A program made the position numbers and the translations under genes. Positions 2,643 to 48,136 of a stretch of DNA of 64,000 bases are shown in pieces (position 1 is the stretch's first letter; every line of letters begins with the position of its first letter). The notes below the pieces were generated by a model. It saw only the letters and a program-made list of their open reading frames with translations. It did not search any database and was not told the origin of the DNA. The stretch is from a candidate division FCPU426 bacterium (GTDB lineage Bacteria; Oederibacteriota; JAAXVQ01; JAUVAV01), in NCBI GenBank assembly GCA_040756875.1, contig JBFLYH010000002.1, positions 981,246 through 1,045,245 on the forward strand. Reading direction: 5' to 3'.

Positions 2643-4436
<1,794 letters not shown>

Positions 4437-7633: not shown

Positions 7634-7750
7634 TTTTTTCCTGGTTATTTCGTTGTTCGTCTGTCCCGGTTGTCCTTGACAGCTCCCCAGCCGCTGCTAT
7701 AATCTGGGCCAACGCGGTTTTCTCATCAAGGGTCCAAAGGAGTCCTGGCC

Positions 7751-7918
7751 ATGAAAGGCAATTCTGCTTGCGGTGGGTGGTACTTCATCGCCATGATCGG
7801 CGCGGCGGTTTATTTCGTCCAGCAATCCGCCACGTTCTGGGGCGGCGTGCTTGGCGTGTTGAAAGCCCTGGTCTGGCCCGCGTTCCTGATTTATCGCCTA
7901 CTGGTCTACCTCGCGTAA
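7751..7918 (+). CDS. hypothetical small hydrophobic protein (55 aa)
   Basis: ATG at 7751 to TAA at 7916-7918, below the ORF-track length cut-off; two predicted TM helices; intergenic location. Confidence 0.3.
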   Translation: MKGNSACGGWYFIAMIGAAVYFVQQSATFWGGVLGVLKALVWPAFLIYRLLVYLA

Positions 7919-10743: not shown

Positions 10744-10848
10744 CCACCGCCCCCTCCCCGTTCCGGGAAAAACAGCAAAACCATCCTCCCTTCGCCCCGT
10801 TGGATACCGGCGGAAGACGTCCTTACCAGCCTATCCGTAAAAAGGTTT

Positions 10849-10882
10849 GTTCGGATTCGGATTTGCCCTTCCGAATCCGAAC
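10849..10882. repeat. 13-bp perfect inverted repeat (hairpin) in the icd-mdh intergenic region
   Basis: GTTCGGATTCGGA (10849-10861), 8-nt loop, TCCGAATCCGAAC (10870-10882); flanked by an imperfect outer IR (10801-10813 / 10921-10935). Confidence 0.6.
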
Positions 10883-11023
10883 ATGGAATGCCAGAGGCCT
10901 TAAGGCGGATTCCGACGGTATCCTGCGGAGCGGTGAATGGGCTTTGTTGTTCGAATCTGGTTTTTTTTAGAAAGTATGTTAAGATAGCCCCGGAATTTAT
11001 TCGTTCCTCCGAAGGAGCTCCTT

Positions 11024-11977
11024 ATGGCACGTCGAAAAATCACGGTCATCGGCGCGGGCAACGTGGGCGCGAGCGTGGCGCAGCAGGTGCTGGCCCAGCA
11101 CCTGGGGGACGTGGTGCTGGTGGACGTGCAGGAAGACCTGGCCCAGGGTAAAGCCCTGGATTTGTCGCAGGCCGGCGCGATCCTGGGATATACCGGCAGC
11201 TGCGTGGGCACGGGCAAATACGAAGAGACCATCGATTCCGACGTCATCGTCGTGACCTCGGGTTCGCCGCGCAAGCCGGGCATGAGCCGCGACGACCTGC
11301 TGAAAATCAACTGCGAAATTGTGCACACCGTGGTCGGCCACGCGGCCGCCGCCTCGCCGGACGCCGTGCTGGTGGTGGTGACCAATCCGCTCGACGCCAT
11401 GACCTATGCCGCCCTGAAGGCTTCGGGGTTTCCGGCGCGGCGCGTAACCGGCATGGCCGGGATTCTGGACACGGCCCGCTACCGTTTTTTCCTGTCCCTG
11501 GCGCTGGGCGTGTCGCCGGAGAACGTGGAGGCCATGGTCCTGGGCGGGCACGGCGATGAAATGGTGCCGTGCGTGCCCCTGACCCGCGTGGGCGGTTCGC
11601 CGGTCGCGGACTGGCTGCCTGCCGAGGAGCTGGAGCGGCTGGTGGCCCGGACCCGCGCCGGCGGCGCTGAAATCGTCCAGTTGCTGAAAAGCGGCAGCGC
11701 CTATTACGCGCCGGCCGCGGCCGCGGTGCGGATGGTGGGCGCGATCCTGCGCGACGAGCAGGCGCTCCTGCCCTGCGCCGCCTGGCTGGAGGGGGAATAC
11801 GGACTGCGCGACGTCATGGTGGGCGTGCCCGTGGTCCTGGGGCGCGCGGGCATCCTGAGAATTCCGGAACTCAAGCTCGCAGCCGAAGACCTGGCCGCGC
11901 TCCGGCGTTCCGCCGAGGCGGTGCGCGAGCTGATGCGCCAGGTGGATGAGTGGTGCCTGGGGAACCTGCCCAAATGA
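11024..11977 (+). CDS. mdh: malate dehydrogenase (LDH-like MDH family)
   Basis: N-terminal Rossmann motif ITVIGAGNVGAS; 317 aa. Confidence 0.85.
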   Translation: MARRKITVIGAGNVGASVAQQVLAQHLGDVVLVDVQEDLAQGKALDLSQAGAILGYTGSCVGTGKYEETIDSDVIVVTSGSPRKPGMSRDDLLKINCEIVHTVVGHAAAASPDAVLVVVTNPLDAMTYAALKASGFPARRVTGMAGILDTARYRFFLSLALGVSPENVEAMVLGGHGDEMVPCVPLTRVGGSPVADWLPAEELERLVARTRAGGAEIVQLLKSGSAYYAPAAAAVRMVGAILRDEQALLPCAAWLEGEYGLRDVMVGVPVVLGRAGILRIPELKLAAEDLAALRRSAEAVRELMRQVDEWCLGNLPK

Positions 11978-26130: not shown

Positions 26131-27456
26131 GTGCCTGAATCTTTCTCCGCCAGACAATTAATCGGTTGCGCCCTGGCTATCGGGCTGCTGCTTACAGGCT
26201 GCCGCGGCGCCACCCAGGCCCCGGCCTGGTCCCAGCGCTCCCTGATCGCCGGCCCTGAAATCCTCGTCCGTCTCTGGCGCAAAACCCCCTTCACGCAAGT
26301 GCAGCTCTCCTGGGACGGCACGCCGCTGCTGGCGGTGGATGCCAACGGAGAAATCATCCCCCTGCCGCAGGTCAACCGGCTCTATTTCTACCAGCGCGGC
26401 GAGCAGGTGGCCCTGGCATTCAAAGCCGGCCGCAAGGCGGCCCGCGAAGCCCAGGCGTACTCCTCGCTGGTGCTGCGGGTCCCGGGATCCGAGGTCAAGG
26501 CGTTCACGGTGTTGATCCCGGAATACGGCCGGCGGCGCAACTACGGCGCCCAAGCCGTGAGCCTGTCCGTGAAATACGGGCACTTGGCGCTGATCAACCA
26601 TCTGCCGCTGGAAATGTACCTGGCGCGCGTGCTGCCCGAGGAAATGGATCCGGAGCATTTCACGCTGGAGGCGCTCAAAGCCCAGGCCGTGGTGGCGCGC
26701 ACCTGGTCCCTGACCAATCTCAACCGGCACGCCCGCTATGGGTATCATTTTTGCGACGGGCCCCACTGCCAGGCCTACCGCGGCCGCAAGCGGGTGTCCG
26801 GCCGGGCCGAGGACGCGGTGAAGATGACCCTGGGCGAAGTGGTGCTCTCCGGCGGCGAGCCGGCCGAGGCGTTTTACCACAGCACCTGCGGGGGCAACAC
26901 GGCGTTCGTGGAAGACGTATGGCCCGGGGCCCGGCTTCCGTATCTGAGGCGCGTCGAGGACCGCTTCCGCCCCGGTCAGCGCGCCTACTGCGCCCATTCC
27001 CCCTATTCACGCTGGACGCTGTGGACTTCGCTCCGGCACGTGGAGCGGGTATTGAAACGCCGCCAGGCGATCGCCGCCGAAACCAATCTGCTGGACGTCA
27101 AAGTGGACGCGGTCAACCGTTCCGGCCGCGTGCTCAGGATTTGGCTGGCCACAGACCGCGGCGAATTGACACTGGGCGGGGAGTCCTTTCGCGCGTGGCT
27201 GAACGAGGAGTTCGGGCGAAAGCTCCTGAGCACGTTTTATTCCATCAGGGTGGAGGACGGGCAGTTTAAGCTGGAGGGGAAAGGCCTGGGACACGGGGTC
27301 GGCATGTGCCAATGGGGCGCCCGGGGCATGGCCCAGCTCGGTTTTTCCTACCAGGACATCCTACAGCATTACTTTCCGGGGACCACGATCGGCCGGTTCG
27401 AGGGGGCGGCCGTGGAACCCGGGGCGACCACGGTGAATTCGCACGCCGGGAAGTAG
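26131..27456 (+). CDS. SpoIID/LytB-domain protein (putative peptidoglycan-acting lipoprotein)
   Basis: GTG start at 26131; lipobox LLTGC; SpoIID/LytB blocks HSTCGGNTAFVEDVW and GHGVGMCQWGARGMA. Confidence 0.7.
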   Translation: MPESFSARQLIGCALAIGLLLTGCRGATQAPAWSQRSLIAGPEILVRLWRKTPFTQVQLSWDGTPLLAVDANGEIIPLPQVNRLYFYQRGEQVALAFKAGRKAAREAQAYSSLVLRVPGSEVKAFTVLIPEYGRRRNYGAQAVSLSVKYGHLALINHLPLEMYLARVLPEEMDPEHFTLEALKAQAVVARTWSLTNLNRHARYGYHFCDGPHCQAYRGRKRVSGRAEDAVKMTLGEVVLSGGEPAEAFYHSTCGGNTAFVEDVWPGARLPYLRRVEDRFRPGQRAYCAHSPYSRWTLWTSLRHVERVLKRRQAIAAETNLLDVKVDAVNRSGRVLRIWLATDRGELTLGGESFRAWLNEEFGRKLLSTFYSIRVEDGQFKLEGKGLGHGVGMCQWGARGMAQLGFSYQDILQHYFPGTTIGRFEGAAVEPGATTVNSHAGK

Positions 27457-29621
27457 CGGGGCGTGCGGGTTACCTGCAGGGGCGAACGCGAACGGCGGGC
27501 CGATCCCATGGGCGCCACTTTCAGGTTCACCTGATACCGGCCGGCCGGAAGGCCCGGCGGCACTGCCAGCTGATAAATTTCCTCCAGATTGCCGGGCGCG
27601 TAGGCCCACGAGGGCGGGGGCCAGTAACCCAGGCGCCGGACCGCTTTCCAGGGCCGGCGCAGGGTTCCGGAAACGGACGGCTGGATCCAAAAATACACCA
27701 CCCATTGTTCGCCGTTGGGCGCGGGCAGAAATTGCCAGCGCAAGGAAACAGTCAGCACGGAATCCAAACCCTCCGAAGCGGCCGGCGGCTGCACGCCGGC
27801 TGCCACCAGGCGCATGGGTCCTGCCGTCTCCAGCGGAGACGGGGTTTTGGCCGGGCCCAGGCCTGATTCGCCCCAGACCGGGCCGCGGGCCACGGGAAAC
27901 GGTTCAACGTGATAGGCTGAAAACCGCCGGTTGGTTCCGTCCGGGCCGTTCACTAAATAGCCTCCATCCTCCATTGCCAATAATCTGAAGCTTTGCAGAA
28001 AGTATTCCCAAGCCGGAGAGGACAGTTTGGGCCTGGCCAAGACCACCACCGGTTTTCCCGCCGACACCTGTTGGCCGAGTTCCCGGTTCCAGGCGGCCCA
28101 TTTGCGCCAGGCCTTGCCTTTTTCCGCAGCGCGGGCGCCGGCGGCAGCCGGCCAGGGTTTGGACAGAGGTTGCAGCAGCAAATCCGGACGCACGCCTTTG
28201 CGGGTTTGCAGCAACAAAGGCAGCAGCCCCTGCTGCATGTCCGGAAAAACCACGATGGCGGATTCGGGCAGGCTTTTCATCCCGCGGCCGACTTCGTCCA
28301 CGTCGGAAATCCGGGGGCCGGATGCCGCTTCCGGCCATCCCTGCAGCAACATCAGCACCGGGGCCAGGGCCACCAGGCTCATGCCGATCCAGGTGGGCTT
28401 GAGACGCATGCCCAGGCTCAAGCGGTGGTCGCCCTGCCCCAGCACGGTCAGGACATACTGCAGGGCTTCCAAACCCAGCCAGGGGCCGGCCATGGCCAGC
28501 CCCAGCATCACGTCCTCGCTTTGCCGCAGGGGCAGCAGCAGCAAACCCGCCAGGGAACAGACGATCAGAAGCGCCAGGAACTGGCGTCCCGGCAGGTTGA
28601 TTTCCTCGGTTACGCGCAGCGGGGTTTTGAGAAACAACCGGCGCAGGTTGGCGGCCAGCCCCAGGCCGGCCAAGGCCCAGGAAAAAACGGGAAAATGCCG
28701 CAGCCAGACGGACCAGACCGTCGACCAAGGTCCCTGCGGGGCAGCAGGGGGGGACCCGTGCGACTGGAGCTGGGTCAGGAAGCCCTGCCAGGCGTGAAGG
28801 TTCAGGGCCGGGCCGAGCGGCTGGAAATGATCCGTGTTGATGAAGACGTGATCCGCAGTCAAGCGCAGGGGCAGGTACAGATAGGGCAGCAAGGCGCCAA
28901 CCAGGGCCGCGGCCACGGCCTGGCCGTACATCCAGGCCTGCACGCGTTGGCGGGGGAGCCCCAGCACCAACCCCAGGAGCAGGGCCGAGGCTGCCCAAGG
29001 AAGCAAGCCCAGGGATTGGGAAGCCGTGGCGCCCAATAAAGCGGCCCAGGCCGTGAGGCGCCAGACGGACACCGGGTGACGGCCGGGCGTGAGCAGACCC
29101 AGCGTTAAGTACACGCCAACAGCCAACAGCCAAAGGTGGAAGGACATCGGGCCGATGCGCAAGCCGGCCTGCCAGACCGGAAAAAACCAAAAACAGGACA
29201 AAGCCGTGGCCAGGGAGACGAAGGGCGGAAACAACAGGCGGCGCGCGATCAAATAAACGAACAGGCAGGTTCCGGAGCCGAACAGCAGGCTGAGCAGGCG
29301 GTACCGCCACAGCTCTTCGCCCAAGGGCAGCACGACGGACAGGAACTTGGCGCTGAGCAGATACAACGGATAGCCCGGAAAACGGACCACGCCCAGCGTG
29401 CTCGCGCCCAGCACCCATTCGGCCTGGCCGCCGGCCCACGAGCTTGTGGCCAGCCAGGGCCAGGAAGTCAGCAAGGGCAGGAAAAAAGCCAGCAGGCCGA
29501 ACCAGCCGTCGGGTTTAAGGAAGAAAATCGTCTGATCCACCCGTTCCGGGCGAGAGGGTGCGTACACGAGCAGCAAGCCTCCGCGGAGCCTGAGCCGGTG
29601 ACGGCGTACGCTCCAGAGCAT
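27369..29621 (-). CDS. DUF2723-like polytopic membrane protein (GT-C-fold glycosyltransferase-like)
   Basis: Only supported minus-strand gene; 750 aa, N-terminal half strongly hydrophobic with LGVVRFPGYPL motif; start uncertain (alternative GTG at 29567 with GGAGG SD). Confidence 0.6.
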   Translation of the reverse strand: MLWSVRRHRLRLRGGLLLVYAPSRPERVDQTIFFLKPDGWFGLLAFFLPLLTSWPWLATSSWAGGQAEWVLGASTLGVVRFPGYPLYLLSAKFLSVVLPLGEELWRYRLLSLLFGSGTCLFVYLIARRLLFPPFVSLATALSCFWFFPVWQAGLRIGPMSFHLWLLAVGVYLTLGLLTPGRHPVSVWRLTAWAALLGATASQSLGLLPWAASALLLGLVLGLPRQRVQAWMYGQAVAAALVGALLPYLYLPLRLTADHVFINTDHFQPLGPALNLHAWQGFLTQLQSHGSPPAAPQGPWSTVWSVWLRHFPVFSWALAGLGLAANLRRLFLKTPLRVTEEINLPGRQFLALLIVCSLAGLLLLPLRQSEDVMLGLAMAGPWLGLEALQYVLTVLGQGDHRLSLGMRLKPTWIGMSLVALAPVLMLLQGWPEAASGPRISDVDEVGRGMKSLPESAIVVFPDMQQGLLPLLLQTRKGVRPDLLLQPLSKPWPAAAGARAAEKGKAWRKWAAWNRELGQQVSAGKPVVVLARPKLSSPAWEYFLQSFRLLAMEDGGYLVNGPDGTNRRFSAYHVEPFPVARGPVWGESGLGPAKTPSPLETAGPMRLVAAGVQPPAASEGLDSVLTVSLRWQFLPAPNGEQWVVYFWIQPSVSGTLRRPWKAVRRLGYWPPPSWAYAPGNLEEIYQLAVPPGLPAGRYQVNLKVAPMGSARRSRSPLQVTRTPRYFPACEFTVVAPGSTAAPSNRPIVVPGK

Positions 29622-29645
29622 TTAAAGCAGACAGGGTGATTCGAG

Positions 29646-29702
29646 AGCAGACAGCAGCAAGGTGAAAGGGCAGCCACTGCGTTCACCTTGCTGCTGTCTG
29701 CT
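29646..29702. repeat. 21-bp perfect inverted repeat with 15-nt loop
   Basis: AGCAGACAGCAGCAAGGTGAA (29646-29666) / TTCACCTTGCTGCTGTCTGCT (29682-29702); direct repeat AGCAGACAG also at 29625. Confidence 0.8.
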
Positions 29703-29904
29703 TATATTGTATCTGATTCACTGTCCGAGTGCCGGATGGCGCTCAGTCCGATTATACCCGCCCGGCGCCTTGAGCCAAGCATTAAGTTGCTGGACGCCCA
29801 TTTTTCTTCTCTATCTCGCCGCAAGCCGGAGGCAGGGCAGGGACGGGAGCCGGGTCTGACGAAAATCATTCATTTAAGCTGGTCGGCGTCAAAGGCTTTA
29901 AAAG

Positions 29905-29933
29905 TTGACAAGGCCATGACCCCCGACTATAAT
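29905..29933 (+). promoter_or_regulatory. consensus sigma70-type promoter TTGACA-17-TATAAT
   Basis: Perfect -35 (29905-29910), 17-nt spacer, perfect -10 (29928-29933); about 280 nt upstream of the YYY gene. Confidence 0.55.
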
Positions 29934-30212
29934 TGCACCAATTGTATTAAATTTTAGGCTTTTTCTGACCCTCGGTCTGTTCCGCCCTACCCGAACGAAC
30001 GGGTTCCCGCAAGTTATCCCGCAACGCCGAAGACCTTGGGTATGCCAGGGTATAAAGGCGTCATCAAGCGTTGCGGGATGTCGCCTGCCACTTGGCCGAC
30101 GACGCGAGGATGTTTAGTTATACCCCGGGCTTCGCCCGGGGGCTCTATATATATAATGTAGGCGTGGGCTTGGCACGGGAATGGCTTTGACACAGGAAGG
30201 GGATTCGCGCTG

Positions 30213-32618
30213 GTGACCGGTATTTTCGTGTGGTGGTTGTTGATCACAATCATGGGGCTGGCTGTTGTCCCGATCGCGTTCCGGGTTTTTCCGTTTCTTC
30301 CTGACCGGGGATATGCGTTTTCCAAACCCTTGGGGCTGGTGCTGGTCGGGCTGCTGACCTGGTGGATCGGGCAGGTGCATTTTTCAGTCCTTACCATTCT
30401 CCTGGCATTCGGGCTGATCGCCGGCCTGTCGTATTGGCTGTGGGTCCGCTCGGCCGCGGAGTTCCGTTCCCTGCTGTCCGAGCGGCTCGGGTTGATCGTG
30501 GCGGTGGAACTGTTTTTCGCGGTTCTCTTCCTCCTTTTCTGCTGGTTCCGCATGTACAACCCGGACATCATCGGCACCGAAAAATTCATGGACCTGGCGT
30601 TTCTCAATTCGCTCTCCCGCGCCACGTCGTTTCCGCCGCCGGACCCGTGGATGGCCGGCTCGAAATTTTTCATCAGCTACTATTATTTCGGCTACCTGCT
30701 CATGGCCATTCTGCTCCGCCTGTCGGCCGTGGCGCCGGCCGTGGGCTTCAATCTTTCCCTGGGCATGCTGTTCGCGCTCGCCGGGATCAGCACGTTCGGC
30801 GTGCTGTACAACCTCACGCGGCGCCTGAGCGCGGGCTTTGGCGGCTGGGCGCTGATCTACCTGATCGGCAATCTCGACGGGTTCAGGCAGGTGCTCGCCA
30901 CCAAAAGCATCGCCAGCTTCAACTGGTGGACGCCGTCGCGCGTCATCCCCGACACCATCAACGAGTTTCCGTTTTTCTCCTTTCTCCTCGGGGACATGCA
31001 TCCGCACATGCTGTCCATCCCCGTGGTCATGCTGACCCTGGGGTTCACGCTGAACCAGCTCAAATCCATGAACCGCGAGCCGAACTTCCGCGAGCCGGAG
31101 CAGCTTGCGACTACGCTGCTCTGGGGCCTGCTGATCGGGGCGCTGGGGTTCGCCAACAGCTGGGACCTGCCCACCACCTTCGGGCTGGCAGGGGCGGCGT
31201 TTCTGCTGCAGCAGTTGCGTTTCAAGCCGCGCCTGGCTGACCTGCCCTGGCGGCAGTGGGGGCTGGGCCTGGCGCTGATGCTGGGCGCCATGTTCGTGCC
31301 GTACCTGCCCTTTTATTTCCACTTCCACAGCCAGGCCAAAGGCCTTGCCTGGACCACGCAGAACACCCGGTTGGGGGATTTTCTGCTCCTCTTCGGCGTG
31401 TTCGCCTATCTCGGCCTGACCTTTCTCCTGGCCCGATACCATGCCTGGTTTTTGGCCGTGCTGTCCCGTCCGCAGGCCGCCTCCGGGGAAGGCAAGGCCG
31501 CCAAAGCCAAAGCCAGCCGTTTCTGCCCGCAGTGCGGGCATACGCTGCGCGAAGGCAAGCGCATTTGCGGCCAATGCGGGTACCAGACGGCGGGCGGAGG
31601 GTCTGAACAGGAATCTTCGCTCCTGTTGCGGCCCGTGGAAGAAACGCCGGAATGGCTGCGCGGGCTGTTCCTGTTCCTGCTGCAGCCCGTGGCGCGCTGG
31701 CGCCAGGGCCGGGGCGCGGCCCTGATCACAGCCGGCGTGCTCGCGGCGGCGGTCGGCGGCGCGCTGGTGAAAGGCCTCTTTTTCTCCACGCCGGGCAATC
31801 CCGCGCCCGTGTTCCTCGGCATCATGATTTTCGCGCTGGCGGCCGCCACCCTGCTGCTGTTCGCCCGCGTGGACAAGCCGGAGACAGTGTTCGCCCTGCT
31901 GCTGCTGGCCACGGCCCTGGCGCTGTTCATGGGCTGTGAAGTGCTGCATATCAACGACACCTTCAATCCGCCGCTGGACAGGATGAACACGGTTTTCAAG
32001 TTTTACTACCAGGCCTGGTTCCTGCTGGGCATCGCCGGCGTCTACGGCGTTTTCTGGACCTGGAAGTATTCGCTGCGCCACGCGAACCTCAAGGTGGTCT
32101 GGCTGTCGGGCCTGGCCCTGCTGCTGGCCGCGAGCCTGGTTTATCCTTACGCGGCCGCGGGCGTCAAGACCAACCGGTTTGCCACCCTCCCGACCCTGGA
32201 CGGCTCGGCATACCTGAATCAGGCGTACCCGGCCGACCGCGCGGGCATCGAATGGCTGCGCCGTTCGGTGGCCGGCAATCCCGTGGTGCTGGAAGCCACG
32301 GGCGGCGAATATACGGATTTTGCCCGCGTGTCCACGTTCACGGGCCTGCCCACGGTCCTGGGCTGGGCCGGCCACGAACTGCAGTGGCGCGGGAACTACG
32401 ACGAACCCGGCCGGCGGATTCCGGACATCGACACGCTCTACGGCTCTTCGGACGTGGCGGCCACTCAGGCCCTGCTGGACAAATACCAGATTACTTACGT
32501 TTTTGTCGGCACCCTGGAGCGGCAAAAATACCCGGAAGAAGCGCTGGCGAAATTCACCCAGTTGATGGACGTGGCGTTCGAACACCCCGGCGGCGTGCGG
32601 ATCTACCGCCGGCGGTGA
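30213..32618 (+). CDS. YYY-motif polytopic membrane protein (DUF2298 / TIGR03662-like) with inserted zinc ribbon
   Basis: GTG start; 801 aa; FISYYYFGYLL motif; CPQCG...CGQCG insertion; many TM helices. Confidence 0.65.
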   Translation: MTGIFVWWLLITIMGLAVVPIAFRVFPFLPDRGYAFSKPLGLVLVGLLTWWIGQVHFSVLTILLAFGLIAGLSYWLWVRSAAEFRSLLSERLGLIVAVELFFAVLFLLFCWFRMYNPDIIGTEKFMDLAFLNSLSRATSFPPPDPWMAGSKFFISYYYFGYLLMAILLRLSAVAPAVGFNLSLGMLFALAGISTFGVLYNLTRRLSAGFGGWALIYLIGNLDGFRQVLATKSIASFNWWTPSRVIPDTINEFPFFSFLLGDMHPHMLSIPVVMLTLGFTLNQLKSMNREPNFREPEQLATTLLWGLLIGALGFANSWDLPTTFGLAGAAFLLQQLRFKPRLADLPWRQWGLGLALMLGAMFVPYLPFYFHFHSQAKGLAWTTQNTRLGDFLLLFGVFAYLGLTFLLARYHAWFLAVLSRPQAASGEGKAAKAKASRFCPQCGHTLREGKRICGQCGYQTAGGGSEQESSLLLRPVEETPEWLRGLFLFLLQPVARWRQGRGAALITAGVLAAAVGGALVKGLFFSTPGNPAPVFLGIMIFALAAATLLLFARVDKPETVFALLLLATALALFMGCEVLHINDTFNPPLDRMNTVFKFYYQAWFLLGIAGVYGVFWTWKYSLRHANLKVVWLSGLALLLAASLVYPYAAAGVKTNRFATLPTLDGSAYLNQAYPADRAGIEWLRRSVAGNPVVLEATGGEYTDFARVSTFTGLPTVLGWAGHELQWRGNYDEPGRRIPDIDTLYGSSDVAATQALLDKYQITYVFVGTLERQKYPEEALAKFTQLMDVAFEHPGGVRIYRRR

Positions 32619-48059: not shown

Positions 48060-48136
48060 GACTGCCAAGCTCAAGGTAGGGGCGTTCAATTGAACGCCCC
48101 TACAAAACGAAAACCCACCGAAAGGAAGAAACATCC

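Follow-up and report, generated by a model that had tools for sequence, protein, structure and literature searches.

An exact consensus promoter and a leader with a lineage-specific insert ahead of a DUF2298 gene in candidate division FCPU426

Does the long stretch that separates an exact consensus promoter from a DUF2298 membrane protein gene in a candidate division FCPU426 bacterium act as a regulatory RNA, or is it an untranslated leader of no particular kind? The stretch lies at 29905-30212 of the window, by which we mean the whole 64,000-nucleotide piece of DNA that was analyzed. A first-pass annotation had taken it for a possible cis-regulatory or riboswitch-like leader of a glycosylation cluster, or else for an independent small RNA. 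The reading favored here, to which we give a probability of roughly 0.7 on the strength of sequence comparisons, is that an ordinary sigma-70-type promoter is followed by a fast-evolving 5' UTR that carries a lineage-specific insert and no ligand- or signal-sensing element.

The DUF2298 locus and its promoters

The DUF2298 ('YYY') gene was located at 30213..32618 on the plus strand, with a GTG start and a product of 801 aa that matched Pfam DUF2298 at E = 4.5e-109; alignment with orthologues began at the first residues of the protein. It was the first in a run of same-strand genes (from 30213), with domain matches to a PMT_2 glycosyltransferase, three NHL-repeat proteins and a PMT_2/PA14 protein on its 3' side, and the label 'glycosylation cluster' appears reasonable for this domain content. 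A TMEM260-like glycosyltransferase gene (27369-29621, minus strand) diverged from the DUF2298 gene, leaving an intergenic region at 29622-30212 between the two. The closest relatives kept the gene order SpoIID, TMEM260-like, DUF2298, PMT_2. In the literature, DUF2298 turned up in two papers, outside their titles and abstracts, and the ten best-ranked papers on FCPU426 were, judged by their titles, community or metagenome surveys.

The annotated promoter TTGACA-17-TATAAT at 29905-29933 was borne out letter for letter. Both hexamers, the -35 at 29905..29910 and the -10 at 29928..29933 (plus strand), matched the consensus at 6/6 positions across a 17-nt spacer, and this was the one site in the 64 kb with no more than one mismatch and such a spacer, against 0.03 expected. 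Transcription is predicted to start near A29940. The discriminator and AU-rich initial transcribed region (TGCACCAATTGTATT...GGCTTTTTCTG, 29934..29972, plus strand) formed a conserved block in alignment A1, and A+T made up 77% of the first 30 transcribed nucleotides, compared with 38% of the whole window. Counted from the end of the -10 hexamer to the GTG at 30213, the leader measured 279 nt, or about 273 nt from the predicted start, in keeping with the ~270 nt given for it earlier. A second promoter at the TATATATATAAT tract (-10 at 30152-30157) was considered and rejected, as the matching -35 read GCTTCG and the promoter scan did not call it.

Judged by every sequence criterion tested, 29905-29933 belongs to the sigma-70 class. 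Like consensus sigma-70 and engineered tac-type promoters, it has exact hexamers, the optimal 17-nt spacer and an A/T-rich start region. Unlike the engineered consensus promoters, it is natural and is exact over phylum-scale divergence for one gene.

The window held a single other exact TTGACA/TATAAT pair, at 7676-7703 on the plus strand, with a 16-nt spacer. It was situated about 50 nt upstream of a 55-aa ORF (7751-7918) that has an ATG start preceded by AAAGGAG and appears hydrophobic by eye.

The TMEM260-like gene was preceded by a divergent promoter of its own, TTGGCT-16-TATAAT (29751..29778, minus strand), with 10/12 consensus positions, and the alignment showed this promoter block to be kept in four relatives (L162, L163, L164, and L166). 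Between it (29778..29751) and the gene, the minus-strand leader (29622-29745) contained a 21-bp perfect inverted repeat at 29646-29702, which forms a hairpin on both strands with about -45 kcal/mol and a z-score of about -9. The orthologous positions in L162 and L163 also folded into long hairpins of different sequence (minus strand, z -4.0 and -6.1; plus strand, z -3.2 and -3.4). Judged by eye, the two arms vary together in A1, a hint that the structure is under selection. The called ATG of the TMEM260-like gene (29619-29621, minus strand) had no ribosome-binding site before it, and an in-frame GTG 18 codons downstream (~29565-29567, minus strand) was preceded at a good distance by GGAGG. The real start may be at this GTG, in which case the minus-strand leader would be about 55 nt longer.

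The promoter in orthologous loci

The first relatives, taken from species-representative genomes and JGI metagenomes, had at most 61% protein identity to the window's DUF2298 protein. Closer ones came from a large protein collection (87, 86, 69, 66, 64, and 63% identity), and their contigs were fetched. The nearest relatives compared were those at 86-87%, apart from L161, which is the same sequence in another assembly. The promoter census covered 23 distinct sequences, namely the orthologous loci of the clade for which upstream sequence was available; the bins concerned are labelled FCPU426, Goldiibacteriota, Firestonebacteria and, for some, 'Spirochaetia' or unclassified.

TTGACA-N17-TATAAT was exact in 23/23 distinct orthologous loci of this FCPU426/Goldbacteria/Firestonebacteria-like clade, over a range of 40-100% in protein identity to the window and of 31-65% in locus GC. 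The 12 hexamer positions and their spacing were constant, with spacer and flanks varying freely around them, and the first 30 transcribed nucleotides of the 23 loci averaged 72% A+T, compared with 51% for the loci. Elsewhere in about 232 kb of clade loci, the sole exact site was that at 7676 in the window, with six further sites at one mismatch. The promoter accompanied the gene even where the upstream neighbor was a different one (L168 and L171), and a strong ribosome-binding site with a GTG start was the rule among the orthologues. Outside the clade, the exact promoter was missing from all of the roughly 110 orthologous loci, which belong to Chloroflexota and other phyla; the best site there had one mismatch and a 16-nt spacer (L023), and at a 17-nt spacer the best had two mismatches.

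On these comparisons, the promoter is to be regarded as real, specific to the DUF2298 gene and strongly selected. Since it is exact and kept in all clade loci, it is very likely that the long untranslated leader before the DUF2298 gene is transcribed. As far as is known, hardly any natural promoter of E. coli agrees with the consensus at all 12 positions, and natural promoters exact at 12/12 are rare. The one unusual point of the locus is this letter-perfect, gene-specific conservation of a consensus promoter across candidate phyla. So extreme a conservation is counted against the favored reading, which does not account for it.

Six Chloroflexota (Anaerolineae-type) DUF2298 loci (L095, L039, L138, L151, L047, and L011) had in common an upstream motif of their own, ATGACAA-N..-GTGGTA(A/C/G)AAT. 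Its distance from the gene is about 140 nt in L011 and about 40 nt in the other five, and it may be a conserved promoter of these loci with an extended -10.

The leader, its insert and its hairpins

Measured from the -10 hexamer to the start codon, the leader ranged from about 55 to 330 nt across the orthologues. Most had about 55-90 nt, three had 138-143 nt (L171, L162, and L163), and the longest were those of L001 (236 nt), L167 (261 nt), the window (279 nt) and L081 (330 nt). Alignment with the 86-87% relatives revealed three shared parts: the discriminator with the ~35 nt, rich in AU, that open the leader; some 50 nt around a 5-bp hairpin; and the last ~60 nt (TATATAATGTAGGC...CAGGAAGGGGAT...GTG). 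This third part, 30148..30212 on the plus strand, was conserved in A1 and contains the ribosome-binding site GGAAGGGG (30195-30202). Missing from the same relatives, in A1 and in pairwise alignments, was a lineage-specific block of about 120 nt, whose boundaries at ~30028..30147 (plus strand) are approximate, and an extra block of about 17 nt around 30162-30178 was additional relative to L163. At greater distances, neither blastn nor nhmmer against the first 80 loci detected sequence homology of the intergenic region at or below 61% protein identity. As for a leader peptide, the only small ORFs were of 39-41 aa with TTG starts inside the non-conserved block, and this candidate was rejected.

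Three hairpins, beginning near +50, +76 and +184, stood out in the leader, and the structures that had been described for it were found again with one correction. The first, the CCCG-aacgaa-CGGG hairpin, was present at 29990-30003 and reaches 5 bp (ACCCG-AACGAA-CGGGU, 29989..30004, plus strand) when the pair A29989-U30004 is counted; it folds at a z-score of -1.55, which is not significant, and was absent from more distant orthologues. The second is closed by the 12-bp perfect inverted repeat ATCCCGCAACGC/GCGTTGCGGGAT, confirmed at 30016-30027 and 30068-30079. The hairpin as a whole (30015..30080, plus strand) has an MFE of -32.7 kcal/mol and a z-score of -4.64 (30012-30083), and includes an inner 7-bp hairpin (30033-30039 with 30045-30051, plus strand). 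The third is a stem of 8 bp, G-C pairs throughout, at 30123..30141 on the plus strand (30123-30130 with 30134-30141; MFE -18.5 kcal/mol, z -2.88); 2/200 shuffles folded equally well. The stem described at 30123-30142 thus stood, but not its UUCG-type loop, which in the MFE fold is a UUC triloop and not a cUUCGg tetraloop. Within the ~120-nt block fall the GC stem in full, the inner hairpin (30033-30051) and, of the inverted repeat, the right arm; its left arm aligned in L163 to leader sequence that is pre-existing and unrelated.

Inverted repeats were far more frequent in the window than chance predicts. Perfect inverted repeats of at least 12 bp with a loop of at most 60 nt occurred at seven places, and 12-mer inverted repeats numbered 18, compared with about 0.5 expected from Markov simulations. 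Perfect intergenic hairpins of 12-14 bp were found at 48076-48103 and 10848-10883; the latter has a U-run on the minus strand and resembles a canonical terminator for the gene at 10900-11400. A long tandem tract of CAA/CAG type, like glutamine codons, occupied 4054-4203 inside the ORF at 2643-4436.

One possible origin of the ~120-nt block is an element of the REP or MITE kind, small, palindromic and mobile or repetitive, that was inserted into the 5' UTR. The block is confined to this lineage, abounds in hairpins and is delimited by the 12-bp inverted repeat. It resembles REP/BIME- or MITE-like repeats in being a short, hairpin-forming, lineage-specific intergenic block. A clear case of such an enlargement was seen in the orthologous leader of L001, where a palindromic repeat of about 90 nt occurs twice in the same intergenic region (3825-3915 and 4092-4180), and the length of the L001 leader is accounted for by the presence of this repeat. 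Its arms (GTCATTCCGAGCGAAGCGAGGAATCTC...) are 91% complementary. One of the copies precedes the DUF2298 promoter, the other is within the leader, and a 29-nt inverted repeat (3780-3808 and 4185-4213) flanks the pair. Unlike REP/BIME- or MITE-like repeats, however, the block is single-copy within the 64 kb, and membership in such a family rests on genome-wide copy counts. A second copy was found neither in the window nor in the other fetched loci, the sole match being L161, which is the same sequence; the repeat's left arm is outside the insert, in leader sequence that L163 already has, and no target-site duplication was recognized. We consider this origin rather unlikely, and it is compatible with an absence of function and hence with the favored reading. 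The independent enlargement of the UTR in other lineages supports the view that the position tolerates insertions.

The GC stem also lends itself to a reading in which the insert is a lineage-specific attenuator. Most transcripts would then end at the stem as leader RNAs some 200 nt long, in effect a small RNA, and read-through into the DUF2298 gene would be regulated, perhaps by alternative pairing with the inverted-repeat hairpin. A strong promoter is indeed followed by this very stable stem, with the hairpin of z -4.64 upstream of it. Behind the stem comes GCUCUAUAUAUAUAAUG, in which the tail is GCUCUAUAUAUAUAAU, an alternation of A and U; the U-run that an intrinsic terminator has directly behind its stem is missing, which sets the stem apart from canonical intrinsic terminators, and the terminator scan made no call there. 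A U-run is likewise missing on both strands of the intergenic hairpin at 48076-48103; transcripts of this organism may thus end at hairpins that have no U-tail, and the U-tract may be dispensable. Against this, the element is missing in the nearest relatives, whose gene has the same promoter, and no alternative anti-terminator pairing stood out in the fold. An attenuator of this kind therefore seems unlikely. The proposal of an independent small RNA is not supported either: a promoter of its own is present, but the candidate terminator is non-canonical and absent in relatives, in which the same promoter leads straight to the gene after about 55-140 nt.

Regulatory readings of the leader and their biological meaning

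It is quite improbable, in our estimate, that with the block at 30028-30147 this lineage alone has recently gained a new kind of riboregulator (an attenuator or a sensor), with the exact promoter kept because the operon is controlled after initiation. What speaks against a plain UTR is that two of the hairpins (z -4.64 and -2.88), each taken singly, exceed shuffled sequence in stability. These two are thus not random sequence and could have a lineage-specific role.

A long-range helix was also considered, in which the U-rich 5' segment GGCUUUUUCUG (about +18 to +28) would pair with the ribosome-binding site CAGGAAGGG and repress translation, the variable insert lying between the two. The helix appeared in the MFE fold of 29940-30215, and both segments are conserved in close relatives. 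It was gone, however, once 21 nt of coding sequence were included, and pyrimidine and purine tracts of this kind pair promiscuously. The unpaired probability of the site in the window was 0.30, against 0.33 in shuffles, which gives no masking signal. Accessibility of the site was clearly below that of its shuffles in 0/11 orthologous leaders, and the first 50 nt had a predicted pairing with it of 0.00-0.07 in 7/11 leaders, the window included. Seen in one fold only and opposed by the ensemble accessibilities of the 11 leaders, the helix is very improbable and was rejected.

The original proposal, in which the leader would serve the glycosylation cluster as a riboswitch or other conserved cis-regulatory RNA, can hardly be upheld. 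The leader does resemble riboswitches and the cis-regulatory leaders of Rfam in that a long 5' UTR with locally stable hairpins separates a strong promoter from the start codon, and the counterparts of the hairpin at 29989-30004 in L162 and L163 show one compensatory change, from G-C to A-U. Unlike riboswitches, it lacks a conserved core, covariation and a match in Rfam, and its hairpins are lineage-specific; as to an expression platform, the GC stem has no U-tract and the ribosome-binding site was about as accessible as in shuffles. Of the three structures cited for it, two are missing in the 86-87% relatives, which lack the block with the GC stem and the inverted repeat's right arm, and over that part the leader is not shared by related genomes; most orthologous leaders have just about 55-90 nt. 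The level of compensation in the small hairpin was reached by 171/500 shuffles of the three sequences and is not significant. RNAalifold on four leaders gave 0 conserved pairs, whole-leader folding gave z-scores of -1.42 and -1.57, again not significant, and the z-scores of 11 orthologous leaders scattered around zero. Rfam models had no match at the gathering score in the whole window and 19 orthologous loci. In a search of 29500-30400 at E ≤10, the best match in the leader, to P11, was noise (13.6 bits, with a threshold of 70), and low E-values were obtained only for miRNA models on the unrelated hairpin at 29644-29704, far below the gathering score; these matches are spurious and are triggered by the minus-strand leader hairpin at 29646-29702. 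On this evidence, the leader falls outside the described families of riboswitches and leaders, and it lacks the conservation by which such elements are defined.

The ordinary promoter followed by a fast-evolving UTR is thus the reading to which we return. On this reading, 29905-29933 is the genuine housekeeping-sigma promoter of an operon that has the DUF2298 gene at its head and whose genes are presumably co-transcribed. The housekeeping sigma factor would bind this optimal promoter and transcription would probably start near A29940; with exact hexamers, a 17-nt spacer and an AU-rich transcript start, initiation should be very strong and expression probably high, favored further by the AU-rich 5' end and the strong ribosome-binding site. 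Throughout this group of candidate phyla, selection has kept the promoter design. From an ancestral length of probably about 55-90 nt, the leader has been enlarged independently in several lineages, here by the ~120-nt block and a smaller one, which brought in the right arm of the repeat and the GC stem. The hairpins are most likely neutral or of generic use, such as in mRNA stability, Rho resistance or the protection of a long untranslated stretch, and the insert probably has no specific regulatory role. They share with ompA-type 5' UTR stabilizers and with intrinsic terminators or attenuators the presence of stable GC-rich stem-loops in a leader; unlike those of the ompA type, they are not at the 5' terminus.

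For the riboswitch question the result is negative, and there is no need to follow the leader up as a new class of RNA. That an exact promoter has stayed unchanged at one uncharacterized DUF2298 gene suggests that the housekeeping sigma factor of these phyla reads signals like those of E. coli, and the pattern holds over uncultured phyla with genomes from 31% to 65% GC. It also offers a ready-made promoter, predicted to be strong, for work on these lineages. The promoter sequence further suggests that the DUF2298 gene and its putative glycosylation operon are among the most strongly transcribed in these organisms, and there is a hint that DUF2298 performs an envelope function in high demand.
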